A DNA stretch of 64,000 nucleotides, taken from the sequence record OR699282.2; one strand, written 5' to 3'. Shown here piece by piece: positions 23,660-37,140 of the stretch. This DNA comes from Escherichia phage BAU.Micro_ELP-22. Below the pieces are notes generated by a model. It did not search any database and was not told where the DNA came from. It saw only the letters and a program-made list of their open reading frames with translations. Each line of letters opens with the position of its first letter. Position 1 is the first letter of the stretch. The position numbers and the translations under genes are program-made.

Positions 23660-24319
23660 ATGAAAACAAAATTAGGTTTGTTTTATAAAAATTATTTCGT
23701 TAAACAGCGTAAATTTATAAAAAAATATTTCTCTGGTGAGAAGTCTAGTCCTATAATTTTTAAAAGACCAAGTTATAATACTTACTTAGCTGGTGCTAAA
23801 CAGTCTAAGAAATTTATTACTCTTTTAAATAAAAACAAAATTAAAGCTTCTTATGTTGAAACGAGAAGAAACTCATCAATAACTCCTGGTGATTTTATTG
23901 AGTACGGATGTTTCAATATTAAGTATAATGATAATACATACTTTATGGATATTGATTGTAATACATCCAATCTTTTTAACATTGTAGTAAATCCATTAAA
24001 ACAATATAATGTTTATGGTGATTCTATTATCAAATTAATCAAAAACAAAGATGGCTTTGATTTTGAAATAAATGTTTTAGATGATAATTTTGACGAAGTA
24101 CCCGTAAACCCTGAAATCTGTGATATTTTAAACAGTTTAAAAGGTAGTACCTACAATATATCATCTGATTTAATGTTTCAGTACTCCTTAATCCATAAAG
24201 ATATTGAAAAGTATATTGAATGTTCCAGAATTTTGAATTTTCTCTATGATGAATTTAAAAAGAGTTCTAAAATAACTGCATACACTTTGTACAATATTCC
24301 TAAAATGGTGAATCTTTGA
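23660..24319 (+). CDS. hypothetical protein, AT-rich
   Basis: ORF ~219 aa; SD AAGGAG; converges on minus-strand block. Confidence 0.55.
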   Translation: MKTKLGLFYKNYFVKQRKFIKKYFSGEKSSPIIFKRPSYNTYLAGAKQSKKFITLLNKNKIKASYVETRRNSSITPGDFIEYGCFNIKYNDNTYFMDIDCNTSNLFNIVVNPLKQYNVYGDSIIKLIKNKDGFDFEINVLDDNFDEVPVNPEICDILNSLKGSTYNISSDLMFQYSLIHKDIEKYIECSRILNFLYDEFKKSSKITAYTLYNIPKMVNL

Positions 24320-25452
24320 CAAATACAGTACTGGCAACTCCACCGTCTGTTGTATTTTGTCCAGTACTGTAAATTTGTATACCATCGGTTAAGTAAGTTC
24401 TGTATAAAGTTGCTGTAACATATACGTTATTCATATTCATCTCTATTGGTAGTACACATTTGGTATAGGCCGACACATCTGTTTGTGTACCTATACCCAA
24501 TTGACCTGCGTTATCGCCTGTGTTATAACCAGTTGCGTAAACACCTAATGAAGTTATAATATGATTAGAAAAATATGAATAACCCACACTGCTTCTTATT
24601 ATATCACCTGGTGCTTGTGTTGTTTGTCTTAACGAAATATATGTTTGTGATGTAGAACCATTTGCTAACTGACCAAAGTATTGTCCACCACCATGATATG
24701 CAAATAATTTATTAGTACTATTATTACTTGCTATAGCAAAAGCGAAGTAACTTGAGTTTGTTGTATAATCTTTCACCGTATAGGTATTAGTTATTTGAGA
24801 ACATAACGTGTACTTTGAATATAACGTCATGTCGGTTGTACCTACGCCTGATATTGCACCAGTATAATACAATCTCCCATCGGTTCCAATAAATCCTTGC
24901 ATAAGAAAATTTGCCAGTATTTTGGATGGTGTTACTCCAGTAGGTACTGTTCCTTGTACAAATGATGAAAGTGAATCGGTACTTCTACCATTTCCCAGTT
25001 GTCCATAACTACCATAACCCGTATTCCATATCGTGTTGTCTGTACATAATACGCTTAATGCACCTGCACTAACTGCAATTTGTTTTATTGTTTTTCCAAG
25101 TGCTGTTATTCTATCAAACACTATCTTTGCAGAAGCCCACGTTGTTGACTTATCAGTTGATAAACCGAATGATGCACCATTTCCAGCATACCACATCGTA
25201 TTATCTTTCTTTTTAATTAATGTTGACTCATACCCGAACCCATAGATCTTCTACGTTTGTATTGCACAAAACCCATTTGGTTTGTGTTATAATATTACCT
25301 ATACCCATTTGCCCAAACTCTTGAGAGCCTCTACTGTACAACGTACCATCTGACATAAGGGCAAAAACTGTTGTATCAGATGAAGCTATTTTTGTTACAG
25401 AAGGTTGTATGTTCTTTTTTGATGATGTGATAATTCTTCCAAAGGGTAGCAT
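24300..25452 (-). pseudogene. RCC1-like repeat protein paralog, frameshifted (74-aa N-part 25228..25452 plus 298-aa C-part 24300..25196)
   Basis: N-part starts MLPFGRIITSS and stops at TGA 25228-25230; continuation is open in the +1 frame and aligns with paralogs. Confidence 0.6.
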
Positions 25453-25525
25453 TGTATCCTCCAAATGTAAATCGTTATTATATTTAGGACAAAAAAAATG
25501 CCAGTACAAGGCACTGGCATAAAAT

Positions 25526-34756: not shown

Positions 34757-35959
34757 CTATTGTTGCCATAACTGCGTTGGCATTAATGTTAGTGTAGTAG
34801 TACTATAAGTGCCATCTGGCAATCTACCACCATTTCCATTCCAGCCACCACATGCATATAATTTATAATCTTTAGTAATTATTATGGTTCTGCTCCAATC
34901 TTTAGATGCCATAAGAACATTGTCATAACCACCACTTATTGCACTAAGATTAAAAATATTCCAAGTTCTAACTAATGTATTAGTTCCATTACCTTCTTGA
35001 CCATATGAGTTAGCACCACTACTTCTAACATATGGTGCGTATTGTGCCATAGGTGCACCAATTGATGCATTTCCCATATTACTTGGACAAATAAAAGTAC
35101 TGTACTTACTTACATCAACCGTGACCGATGTGTTCCTAATTGGTGTTAGCTGATTTACCGATGTAGTCGTACCATTACCAGCTTGTCCAGAACTGTTAGC
35201 CCCGCTATAATATACAGACCCACCAGTAGTAAACCACCAAGTAACATCGTATGTAGTACTAATATGTTCTACATTACTAATCACGAATTTGTTCAAATAT
35301 ACAACAGAACTACCACCACATCCACTTTCACCAAAGTTATCCTTACCACAAAACCATGCATCTTTATTTGATTTGATATAGTGCGTTCCTTGTAATGAAC
35401 ATGCCATATGTGTAACTTCACCCATATTAGTCATAACTGTGAGTGTAGGGATGGAATTTTTATTCCCAGAGCCACATTCACCATTAGTATTTCTTCCACA
35501 CGCAATTACTCTACCATCGGTTAATAATATTCTAGTACTTTCACCTATATATACACTCTTGATCATATTAGCCATAACACCTATTTTATTAAATGCAACA
35601 GTAACATCAGTCCATGTTGTCAAATAACCATTAACAGGTGTTGCATCTCCATAATCAGAAAATGCACCCACAGACCCAGTGTAGTATATTTTATTATCCA
35701 AATCAATCATCAATGAACCTTGAACACCAAGCCAAAAGGCTGCACAGTTCCTTGCAAGTACTGTAAATGACGAAACTGCTGCTGAATTCCCAAGACCAAA
35801 TTGATAAAAGTTATTACTACCATAACCATATAAAGTATTAGTTGGGTTATGGAGATACATACAGTTTGTATAATGTTGTTGTAAAACATCTGAGAACTCT
35901 ACAGGTACTGGACCTGGTGCAATATTTGCGTACTTAACCATTCTTCCAAAAGGTAACAT
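34757..35959 (-). CDS. RCC1-like repeat protein, leader-peptide family
   Basis: 400 aa; MLPFGRMVKYANIAPGP; GANSSGQAGNG, GRNTNGECGSGN. Confidence 0.8.
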   Translation of the reverse strand: MLPFGRMVKYANIAPGPVPVEFSDVLQQHYTNCMYLHNPTNTLYGYGSNNFYQFGLGNSAAVSSFTVLARNCAAFWLGVQGSLMIDLDNKIYYTGSVGAFSDYGDATPVNGYLTTWTDVTVAFNKIGVMANMIKSVYIGESTRILLTDGRVIACGRNTNGECGSGNKNSIPTLTVMTNMGEVTHMACSLQGTHYIKSNKDAWFCGKDNFGESGCGGSSVVYLNKFVISNVEHISTTYDVTWWFTTGGSVYYSGANSSGQAGNGTTTSVNQLTPIRNTSVTVDVSKYSTFICPSNMGNASIGAPMAQYAPYVRSSGANSYGQEGNGTNTLVRTWNIFNLSAISGGYDNVLMASKDWSRTIIITKDYKLYACGGWNGNGGRLPDGTYSTTTLTLMPTQLWQQ

Positions 35960-36030
35960 ATTTCCCTCCTTTATTCATTATACTATATTTAATACAAAAA
36001 GAAATGCCAGTATCAAGTACTGGCATCGTA

Positions 36031-37140
36031 TTACTTGGGTAATGGAATTGTGGTCCATCTATTTGCGGCAACGTCACCTGGTACATATGTAGGACTACCA
36101 CTTACAGCAATAGTTTCATTACCATCATATACAACACTGAAGTTTGTGCACGTATACAACGCTGCGGCATCTGGATTGTAATTTTCAAGTGTTAGTGTAT
36201 TGGTGAACAAATTCAATGCAGTAGTTGAGCCGTTTTTACCATATGCACCTGTAGTATATATCTTTCCTTCTGTTGTTGAGTACATATTAACATATGACCC
36301 AGATGATGATTTAGCAATTTTATCTATCTTGCTATCTATTGTTTTAGAGTTAAATTGAAATGGATATACCTGTACGTTAGTATCTAAACCATTTCCCAGT
36401 TCCCCATTTAACTGCCACCCTGTGTGGTACATTCCCGCATTTGTATATGCAAGCGTACTATACGCATTACCACCCATTATTTTAGTGCCAGATAATTTTA
36501 AACCAAACGATGTCCACTTACCAGTTTCATTTCCTATGGAACCATAAGCACTTGTACCACACGCACGAAGCTCGCCATTTGACGTTAGAAGCACTGTATT
36601 ATTAACGTTACCAAATATATCAATAACCTGATTAGTGCCATTATTCAGTACTGAAGTAAAAGTACTCTGTGAGTAAGTACTACCTGAACCAACAGAACCA
36701 TTTGTGTTCATACCTCTTCCATATACAATTTTACCATCAGCACTAACATAGTGCATTGAATCAAAACCAATGGATATCATTTTAATATCAGATATATCTG
36801 GAAATGAAGAAGTTACATCTACTCCACCTAGTGGAATTGTATTATTTCCTAAACCTAATGAGACATTAGTTCCGTGCATTATAAATTTATCTTCTTTAAA
36901 ATATAAAATATTATATCCACCAGCCCATGCATTATTAACGCCATTTGTAATCAGTACCCATTTATTTTGTGTAGTAGTTCCAGTAATATTTAACTGTTGA
37001 TAGTTATTGATTCCACAACCATATAGCGATCCATCACCATATAGTACATATAAATTATCATATCCTGCAATAACTTTCTTTATTTTTTTGGGTACAGGTG
37101 CTACGTTCCCATAATTCATCATTCTTGCAAAAGGTAACAT
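36031..37140 (-). CDS. RCC1-like repeat protein, leader-peptide family
   Basis: 369 aa; MLPFARMMNYGNVAPVP; first gene of the array, divergent from the 37244 promoter. Confidence 0.8.
   Translation of the reverse strand: MLPFARMMNYGNVAPVPKKIKKVIAGYDNLYVLYGDGSLYGCGINNYQQLNITGTTTQNKWVLITNGVNNAWAGGYNILYFKEDKFIMHGTNVSLGLGNNTIPLGGVDVTSSFPDISDIKMISIGFDSMHYVSADGKIVYGRGMNTNGSVGSGSTYSQSTFTSVLNNGTNQVIDIFGNVNNTVLLTSNGELRACGTSAYGSIGNETGKWTSFGLKLSGTKIMGGNAYSTLAYTNAGMYHTGWQLNGELGNGLDTNVQVYPFQFNSKTIDSKIDKIAKSSSGSYVNMYSTTEGKIYTTGAYGKNGSTTALNLFTNTLTLENYNPDAAALYTCTNFSVVYDGNETIAVSGSPTYVPGDVAANRWTTIPLPK

Follow-up and report, generated by a model that had tools for sequence, protein, structure and literature searches.

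A short N-terminal leader shared by RCC1-like and other binding folds in Rak2-like jumbo phages: a putative virion docking peptide

Introduction

Why do eleven neighbouring phage genes with highly diverged products all begin with the same dozen residues? The genes occupy positions 24300-37140, on the minus strand, of a 64-kb stretch of DNA (here denoted the window, meaning the whole of the DNA analysed) from Escherichia phage BAU.Micro_ELP-22 (record OR699282.2), an Asteriusvirus (121Q/PBECO4-like) jumbo coliphage. They share the start MLPF[AG]RMxxYGN, here denoted the leader, and most continue into an RCC1-type beta-propeller. We report that the leader recurs across the Rak2-like jumbo phages, that it stands in front of at least four cargo folds, and that its residues are kept across genera while their codons change. 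Our preferred reading, held with moderate confidence, is that it serves as a docking peptide that recruits swappable binding modules to the virion, probably externally.

Both the RCC1 array, which is routinely annotated, and its association with virions were known before this work. Array-region DNA is 85-99% identical, in patches, to E9.1, JP4, 121Q, PBECO4 and phAPEC6, and the Asteriusvirus matches are genomes of 348-384 kb with patchy coverage of at most 56%. The window array is the same array as phAPEC6 gp001-010 plus gp549-551, 121Q 234-248, its PBECO4 counterpart, GAP32 gp001 and PHROG 4219. 'Eleven similar RCC1-like proteins' were published for phAPEC6, whose authors speculated that they order packaged DNA or have an inner-body role (PMC7247149), and multi-copy homologs in 121Q and PBECO4 are listed in the paper on phage CBB (PMC5259590). 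Database homologs are named 'regulator of chromosome condensation' or 'putative DNA condensation protein'. The published treatment of the array runs under RCC1 and 'DNA condensation'; the leader, the non-RCC1 cargo and the regulatory cassette described below are not mentioned there. The shared N-terminal leader was not found in the literature searched, including searches with 7-residue strings such as MLPFARM and MIPFARI, and the same literature held nothing relevant on RCC1-like phage decoration proteins. What the searched literature did not show us is thus a 12-residue leader that spans a clade, precedes at least four unrelated cargo folds and is fused to a repeated regulatory cassette. A first-pass annotation of the window, made from the letters alone, had not recognised the arrangement from any described phage system; that remark stands for the leader and falls for the array.

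Results

Eleven genes share the leader and diverge behind it

A six-frame search of the window for MLPF[AG]R gave exactly 11 matches, all on the minus strand, all at starts of open reading frames (ORFs) and all between 25452 and 37140 (Table 1). These methionines are the true starts, each lying 6-9 nt 3' of a GGAGG Shine-Dalgarno motif. The N-terminal extensions of g04 and g08 in the ORF list arise because the frame stays open through the conserved cassette that precedes these genes. The array is made up of eight intact RCC1-type propellers, one glycine-rich protein, one propeller gene truncated by a 1-nt insertion and one frameshifted pseudogene. Alignment of ten of the proteins showed that M1, L2, P3, F4, R6, M7, Y10 and N12 are invariant and that the bodies are 23-30% identical. 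The paralogs are near-neutral (isoelectric point 5.1-9.1), with ~6% lysine plus arginine and ~40% serine, threonine, asparagine and glycine.

Nine of the ten tested proteins match a Pfam RCC1, RCC1_2 or RCC1-like domain (PF00415, PF13540 or PF25390; E 1e-12 to 3e-32). The PF25390 scores lie below the curated cut-off of that model, and seven of the nine paralogs pass the cut-off of PF00415 or PF13540. All nine RCC1 members match phrog_4219 full-length and from residue 1 (E 5e-60 to 8e-114).

The reading frame of g09 is broken by a 1-nt insertion near 27095, inside a GxNxxGQLGNG motif. The same truncated 269-residue ORF is present in phAPEC6 as gp007 (phAPEC6 L001:10640-11449), with the insertion in common and a protein 99% identical. 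Programmed frameshifting and sequencing error were both rejected as explanations, since the site is not slippery (TCACGGACAATT) and phAPEC6 carries the same truncated ORF, and g09 is treated here as an inherited truncation. In g11 the frame is lost at a G-run, and this pseudogene is the only array copy with a decayed leader.

Predicted folds place the leader outside the cargo domain

The AlphaFold model of g07, built on a 22-sequence alignment, is all-beta, with a predicted local distance difference test (pLDDT) score of 91.1 and a predicted template modelling (TM) score of 0.88; residues 1-15 are the only segment with pLDDT <50. Foldseek comparison with the PDB gave UVR8 as the best match (E 1e-18, TM 0.77), with RPGR, RCC1 (1a12) and HERC2 at TM 0.64-0.69. 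At the level of the model, this confirms the RCC1 members as seven-bladed RCC1-type beta-propellers with the leader outside the fold. The possibility that the leader closes the propeller as a 'Velcro strand' was considered and rejected, given the low pLDDT of residues 1-15 and the presence of the same leader on non-propeller folds.

The g06 model is equally confident (pLDDT 92.6; its first 10 residues at 47). Foldseek returned weak matches (TM ~0.27) to the cyanophage Pam3 fiber, the Bxb1 tail tip and the ALK glycine-rich domain, which we take as a hint only. The g06 protein itself has no Pfam match at E 0.1; its homolog Munch_544 matches PF21722 (Gly_rich_2, E 1.4e-5), and many of the phmmer matches of g06 carry PF21722. 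A PDB sequence search with the glycine-rich profile gave nothing meaningful. The Gly_rich_2 homolog gp19 of PVP-SE1 (L005:9001-9843) was rejected as support for a structural role, as it sits among replication genes.

Gly_rich_2 homologs of g06 in other phages match it in size but begin with another short sequence, M[LI]E[LM]L... (for example MIELLAISG or MFEMMLATSE), which precedes the conserved GQxxFTxxGTxxWxVP start of the domain. Here the same cargo seems to carry another leader, one specific to a lineage.

Together, these data bear out the anatomy given by the first-pass annotation: eleven consecutive minus-strand leader genes, nine of them intact and two with frameshifts that prove real, diverged bodies of RCC1-type propeller fold behind a constant leader, and a glycine-rich member at 30357-31094. 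That member has no RCC1 match and belongs to phrog_4474.

The leader occurs widely among the Rak2-like phages, on several folds

Searching with the leader by tblastn matched 60 phage records, all of them jumbo phages of 310-386 kb, and those checked are Rak2-like. The matches fall at 5-16 places per Asteriusvirus genome and at 1-2 in Serratia BF, Yersinia fHe-Yen9-04 and GAP32; RaK2 and K64-1 were not matched. Across phages the consensus is M-[LI]-P-F-x-[RKQ]-h-h-x-Y-[GA]-N, where h is hydrophobic. Of the Rak2-like jumbo phages examined, all but RaK2 and K64-1 have it, at the head of 1-17 clustered genes. A degenerate DNA pattern of the leader found only nine contigs in IMG/VR, of 348-378 kb (four isolates and five metagenomic); the five metagenomic contigs, of 355-371 kb, carry RCC1, Kelch, LamG or small unknown proteins as cargo. 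A 40-residue leader profile had yielded only ten short candidates and no cargo census, and was replaced by the tblastn search, the DNA pattern scan and inspection of loci.

Inspection of five related phages showed how the cargo varies. Pectobacterium CBB has six leader genes in the syntenic locus and at least nine genome-wide (MLPFxR[ML]xxY[GA]N), with Laminin_G_3, Kelch and phrog_6011 'virion structural protein' cargo. Seventeen consecutive leader genes are present in Salmonella Munch (MIPFx[RK]...), encoding RCC1, glycine-rich, LamG and phrog_6011 proteins, and 13 in Klebsiella fENko-Kae01, with the same start and, as judged by length and N-terminus, the same cargo types. Erwinia Hallingskeid has ten (MIPFxRMIxYGN), which comprise Kelch, eight RCC1 and one small 'virion structural protein', while the 11 genes of Xanthomonas XbC2 (MLPFP[QR]LxxYGN) include a 688-residue RCC1+Kelch fusion, three Kelch, two LamG and two RCC1 proteins. 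The leader is thus found on at least four cargo folds, namely the RCC1 propeller, the Kelch propeller, the LamG lectin fold and Gly_rich_2; behind it, the related phages and metagenomic contigs inspected showed neither enzyme nor toxin domains. Because the leader is disordered in both AlphaFold models, in front of confidently predicted bodies (pLDDT 91-93), and occurs on several folds, it appears to be independent of the cargo fold.

A shorter variant, MLPFPIIS[NK]T.IVP or MLPFPIMIH, lacks YGN and stands on RCC1, LamG and glycine-rich cargo. It was seen in XbC2 (L007:5481-6647 and 8927-9553) and in some metagenomic proteins (P0030, P0044).

Residues are kept while codons change

In Munch and CBB the conserved residues of the leader are written in several synonymous codons (proline as CCA, CCG or CCT; arginine as AGG, AGA or CGT; glycine in four codons), and the codons for phenylalanine, tyrosine and asparagine vary as well. 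Positions 5 and 9 vary freely, the latter being E in CBB and K, N, R, T, S or G elsewhere. The leader is also kept in genes without the upstream cassette (g03, g09 and g10) and in translationally coupled Munch genes. Since codons change synonymously across genera while residues stay, the comparison carries what reads as the signature of selection on the leader as a peptide. Within the window the picture is one of identity: the first seven leader codons are the same in ten genes, with no synonymous change.

Leader proteins are among published virion proteins

Leader-bearing proteins have been detected in the virions of three phages by mass spectrometry (MS). In phAPEC6, gp003, 005, 006, 007, 009, 010, 549 and 551 are among the 62 virion proteins found by electrospray ionization tandem MS (PMC7247149 Table 1); in CBB, CBB_536, 537, 548, 549, 551, 552 and 553 were found in virions with coverage of up to 51%, and GAP32 gp001 is reported as structural, having been found by virion MS (PMC5259590). 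Detection in phAPEC6 virions extends to gp007 (30 kDa), the ortholog of the truncated g09 (PMC7247149). This is a hint that incorporation is driven by the leader and not by the cargo, the N-terminal part being enough. Four of the six MS-detected structural proteins of CBB that are absent from GAP32 sit in the leader-gene cluster (PMC5259590). In addition, the GenBank record of fENko-Kae01 flags the glycine-rich homolog as identified by liquid chromatography tandem MS; the locus tags that we searched for were not found in the proteomics supplement of that phage.

The leader codons form part of a repeated cassette

Seven genes of the array share a block that runs from -68 to +45 with 88-98% column identity, versus ~50% in the flanks. 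Its order is a hairpin GCCAGTACnnnGTACTGGC with a T-run, the box TATTAAATATAGTATAATGAATAAAGGAGG, the start codon and the leader codons. The cassette and the first 45 nt of the gene form a 113-bp near-identical repeat, and each cargo is thus flanked by ~113-bp direct repeats. The 26-nt box occurs in seven copies versus 0 expected and is confined to the array; terminator-like hairpins number 17 versus 6.1 expected. The promoter-like element of the cassette consists of ATTAAATA (TAAATA core) and a TATAAT hexamer. It lacks the ATAAATA box of the structural genes, and comparison with the regions upstream of structural genes gave no promoter class for the cassette.

Two further observations concern these elements. 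Most phAPEC6 structural genes are preceded by an ATAAATA box that resembles the T4 late promoter. The inter-gene hairpins at 32404-32422, 33614-33632, 30331-30349 and 36004-36026 are near-perfect palindromes, terminator-like on both strands, with weaker T-runs on the plus strand.

Array genes diverge as a mosaic, apparently under purifying selection

Compared with their phAPEC6 orthologs, the array genes have gene-wide ratios of nonsynonymous to synonymous divergence (dN/dS) of 0.0-0.34, at dS of 0.016-1.18. Four genes (g03, g06, g09 and g10) are 97-100% identical to their orthologs, with dS no higher than 0.06; identity falls to 62-65% for g01 and g04, where dS is >1. Because dS is such a mosaic while dN/dS stays at or below 0.34, the divergence looks like replacement of whole alleles or cassettes by recombination under purifying selection, for which the 113-bp repeats would offer an obvious substrate. 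Gene-wide positive selection was rejected on the same values, which do not support the earlier suggestion that the variable part is under diversifying selection.

Table 1. Leader genes of the window and the repeated elements between them. The larger coordinate of each gene is the position of its leader ATG.
Feature	Positions	Strand	Description
g01	36031-37140	-	369 aa; leader MLPFARMMNYGN and RCC1-like propeller; first in array; PF13540 E 8e-11, phrog_4219 E 2e-66
g02	34757-35959	-	400 aa; leader MLPFGRMVKYAN and RCC1-like propeller; PF25390 E 4e-29, PF00415 E 2e-10
g03	33639-34748	-	369 aa; leader MLPFGRMIRYGN and RCC1-like propeller; overlaps end of g02; no upstream cassette, Shine-Dalgarno only
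g04	32429-33568	-	379 aa; leader MLPFARMVKYGN and RCC1-like propeller
g05	31167-32357	-	396 aa; leader MLPFARMMNYGN and RCC1-like propeller
g06	30357-31094	-	245 aa; leader MLPFGRMIKYGN and glycine-rich body of Gly_rich_2 type; phrog_4474 E 6e-68
g07	29143-30285	-	380 aa; leader MLPFARMVKYGN and seven-bladed RCC1-like propeller; member modelled
g08	27897-29072	-	391 aa; leader MLPFARMVKYGN and RCC1-like propeller; PF25390 E 3e-32
g09	26706-27885	-	leader MLPFARMVNYGN and RCC1-like body; 269-aa ORF at 27076-27885; rest in +1 frame to 26706
g10	25526-26695	-	389 aa; leader MLPFGRMLKYGN and RCC1-like propeller; no upstream cassette
g11	24300-25452	-	pseudogene; decayed leader MLPFGRIITSSK; G-run frameshift near 25235; pieces 25228-25452 and 24300-25196 (RCC1-like remainder)
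Example intergenic cassette	29073-29140	-	hairpin GCCAGTACnnnGTACTGGC and T-run (terminator-like), then TATTAAATATAGTATAATGAATAAAGGAGG (promoter-like and Shine-Dalgarno)
Other promoter/Shine-Dalgarno copies	30290-30315, 31100-31125, 32363-32388, 33573-33598, 35965-35990, 37146-37171	-	repeat of TATTAAATATAGTATAATGAATAAAGGAGG
Hairpins	25498-25520, 30329-30351, 31140-31160, 32404-32422, 33614-33632, 36003-36027		terminator-like

Genes around the array

The array lies among small early-type genes. Upstream of it are a DenV-type pyrimidine dimer glycosylase (16994-17509, plus strand; PF03013, E 4e-15) and a 474-residue HNH or homing-endonuclease-like ORF (18504-19928, plus strand). They are followed at 19997-23615, also on the plus strand, by a P-loop NTPase (256 residues, phrog_1250) and then ~8 paralogous ORFs of 104-141 residues, the last two of them membrane-protein-like. 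This NTPase block adjoins the leader array, in opposite orientation, in the source phage, CBB, Munch, fENko-Kae01, Hallingskeid and XbC2. Just past the array, at 37244-39078 on the plus strand and probably extending further downstream, is a second tandem family of head-to-tail ORFs of 59-75 residues, most of which start with MN and many of which end with ...Y.EVLKLI.. The GC skew turns from positive to negative at ~24 kb, a boundary that coincides with the start of the minus-strand array, and back at ~42 kb; the ORFs at 37-42 kb are on the plus strand despite the negative skew.

Discussion

The anatomy of the locus, its distribution and the published virion proteomics suggest to us a reading that we think rather probable, in which the leader is a docking peptide that recruits swappable binding modules to the virion. 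The first 12 residues would form a free, unstructured peptide, with the initiator methionine probably retained, since a leucine or isoleucine next to it blocks methionine aminopeptidase. A linker, short and in many cases rich in proline, would join this peptide to a single globular binding domain. As a short linear motif at a free N-terminus, the leader would be recognised by a conserved partner and would bring otherwise unrelated RCC1, Kelch, LamG/ConA-like and glycine-rich proteins to one conserved virion site, so that a single particle could carry a mixed, exchangeable set of ligand-binding modules. These modules might act as accessory adhesins or as decoration tied to the capsid and sheath fibres. 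The cassette would give most genes their own expression signals (terminator hairpin, promoter-like box and Shine-Dalgarno sequence), and its ~113-bp repeats may serve as a homologous-recombination handle for duplicating, deleting and swapping cargo between co-infecting phages. Two proposals of the first-pass annotation are in keeping with this reading: that the constant leader is a module separable from its cargo, in line with its disorder in both models and with the non-RCC1 cargo in related phages, and that it is a virion targeting or attachment signal, which fits the published MS of phAPEC6, CBB and GAP32 (PMC7247149 Table 1; PMC5259590).

Where on the virion would the modules sit? We favour an external position. 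All identified cargo consists of non-catalytic binding folds, and the paralogs are near-neutral, poor in lysine and arginine and rich in serine, threonine, asparagine and glycine. PVP-SE1 protein 40, annotated as a tail protein, likewise contains an RCC1-like propeller, and the g06 model weakly resembles phage fibre and tail-tip proteins. Furthermore, long fibres of unassigned identity cover the capsid and sheath of 121Q, phAPEC6 and CBB, together with a hexon-centre 'fibre-anchoring' protein (PMC5646251, PMC7247149, PMC5259590), and the structural proteins by which CBB differs from GAP32 fall largely in the leader cluster. LamG domains in jumbo phages have been linked to fibres and adhesion (PMC7824862). 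The leader proteins are therefore candidates for the unexplained 'hairy' fibres or decorations of 121Q, phAPEC6 and CBB and for their accessory host-interaction proteins.

Several points weigh against docking at the virion surface. The phAPEC6 preparation used for MS includes the non-structural proteins topoisomerase, RecA-like protein, SSB and thymidylate synthase (PMC7247149), and coverage of the RCC1 paralogs by MS is low, at 3-17%; part of the virion association could thus be carry-over. Of the 14 annotated array-region genes of fENko-Kae01, only that of the glycine-rich homolog carries a flag for identification by MS. Early-type genes surround the array, the structural module is distant (~130-170 kb away in phAPEC6), and the cassette lacks the ATAAATA box that precedes structural genes. 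A phiKZ-like inner body is present in 121Q (PMC5646251), and an internal location is possible. Given the first seven codons that ten window genes have in common, concerted evolution contributes to the identity of the leader within the genome. Finally, the contact between the leader and a virion component is inferred from sequence, distribution and published virion MS.

The alternative that survives best, and that we judge unlikely, is capsid targeting of the T4 kind. The leader would take the proteins into the prohead core, where they would be packaged with the DNA as an inner body; on ejection they would enter the host and might, for example, bind and neutralise its defence proteins. The diverse internal proteins of T4 have only a capsid targeting sequence (CTS) in common, and they are encoded in a hypervariable locus (PMC3012670). 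In this clade the capsid protein is of the T4 gp23 type and the prohead protease of the T4 type (phAPEC6 gp227c; PMC5646251), the inner body has been seen in 121Q, an inner-body or DNA-ordering role was suggested by the phAPEC6 authors themselves, and virion MS cannot separate inside from outside. The protease appears to be Glu-specific, because a cut after the E of L-T-E-S at residue 43 of the phAPEC6 capsid protein gives 37.2 kDa, which matches the 37 kDa published for the mature 121Q capsid protein (PMC5646251). However, the leader does not end in a conserved cleavage site (hydrophobic-x-Glu): its position 9 is E in CBB only, and the stretch that joins the leader to the first propeller strand is free of Glu in g01, g03, g05 and g08. 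The scaffold and core proteins of the phage start in a T4-CTS-like manner (MSKLEKLLKE, MANLKLLQEA), unlike MLPF. These points speak against a cleavable signal of the T4 type; an internal location without cleavage is possible. The cargo consists of rigid propellers and lectin folds of 25-43 kDa, near-neutral and lysine-poor, unlike basic DNA-embedded internal proteins, and no enzymatic or inhibitor-like cargo was found among the leader proteins scanned. For orientation, the capsid protein region of phAPEC6 (L008, 135001-185000: 6122-7297, 7389-8504 and 9215-10063) includes the scaffold gp226c and the acidic gp228c, both with T4-CTS-like N-termini.

We give a somewhat smaller chance to recognition of the leader by a partner outside the virion, such as a modifying enzyme, a chaperone or assembly factor of the phage, or a membrane or secretion pathway tied to the small membrane-protein paralogs nearby. 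In all genera examined the array adjoins a conserved run of small membrane-protein genes and the P-loop NTPase gene, in opposite orientation. Synteny alone is no proof of interaction, the leader has no hydrophobic core of the signal-peptide type, and a non-virion reading does not explain the MS detection in virions of three phages.

Far less probable, in our view, is that the peptide has no function of its own, its constancy being a by-product of common descent and concerted evolution of the regulatory cassette, or an mRNA-level signal. What speaks for it is that the conserved block is a DNA-level feature, continuous from upstream sequence into the coding region, that the first codons are identical within the window and that the cassette is specific to the array. 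Against it stand the synonymous codon changes at fixed amino acids across genera, the persistence of the leader in genes without the cassette and in the translationally coupled Munch genes, its presence on non-homologous folds, and its decay in the pseudogene g11 only.

Very hard to credit is a role of the proteins as chromatin or condensation factors for the DNA of phage or host, with the leader as part of that function. The fold does match eukaryotic RCC1, but the condensation names in the databases, including the label of PHROG 4219, seem to derive solely from fold-family homology, and we found no functional test behind them. UVR8 and RPGR match the structure better than RCC1 does, the paralogs are not basic, Kelch, LamG and glycine-rich proteins without a DNA link share the leader and the locus, and we know of no Ran-like GTPase partner in bacteria.

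If docking is verified, a 12-residue incorporation tag would be a simple tool to decorate or load jumbo phage particles, and a misleading annotation on hundreds of database entries would give way to a testable alternative, that of virion-associated binding modules defined by their tag and not by their fold. A bolder form of the docking reading, which we offer tentatively and regard as possible, likens the system to a natural 'phage display': a universal 12-residue tag would plug any of 10-20 lectin-like or propeller modules into a common capsid, sheath or fibre site, each virion would show a combinatorial set of adhesins, and the 113-bp repeats would let phages trade modules. Were this so, the tag would be portable and could load foreign proteins onto Rak2-like virions.

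How does the array compare with known systems? The internal proteins of T4 (IPI, IPII, IPIII and Alt) resemble it in having a short constant N-terminal peptide, diverse cargo, a plastic locus and a place in the virion (PMC3012670). They differ in that the leader has neither CTS similarity nor a conserved Glu site, and in that the cargo in the window consists of large neutral binding folds, whereas theirs is small and basic. Modular receptor-binding proteins, such as T7 gp17, G7C gp63.1 and gp66 and the CBA120 tailspikes, have a conserved N-terminal anchor and an exchangeable C-terminal domain; likewise, the array would combine a constant N-terminus for attachment with a variable distal binding part and horizontal exchange. 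Their anchors, however, are folded and ~100-300 residues long, and belong to trimeric fibres or spikes whose genes form part of the tail module, whereas the array has 12-15 disordered constant residues, single globular domains and 10-17 paralogs whose genes lie a long way from the structural module. T4 Hoc and other Ig-like decorations are accessory surface proteins proposed to aid adherence to host or environment, and the leader proteins, as proposed here, would also be accessory surface binding folds. Hoc-type proteins have a folded capsid-binding domain and are encoded by single-copy genes, and we know of no shared short tag or paralog library among them. At the DNA level the closest likeness is to the PeSL cassettes of T4-type phages, where a repeated intergenic stem-loop and promoter flank variable genes as they do in the window. 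PeSL units were reportedly described by Arbiol, Comeau and Krisch in 2010 in a hyperplastic region and proposed to mediate modular shuffling by recombination. The window repeat differs from them by continuing into the coding sequence as a conserved peptide, and this fusion of a coding leader to a terminator-promoter repeat would be a neat example of how a paralog library is kept exchangeable. We rate the leader array as a variant of a known principle, that of a targeting or anchor peptide on variable cargo.

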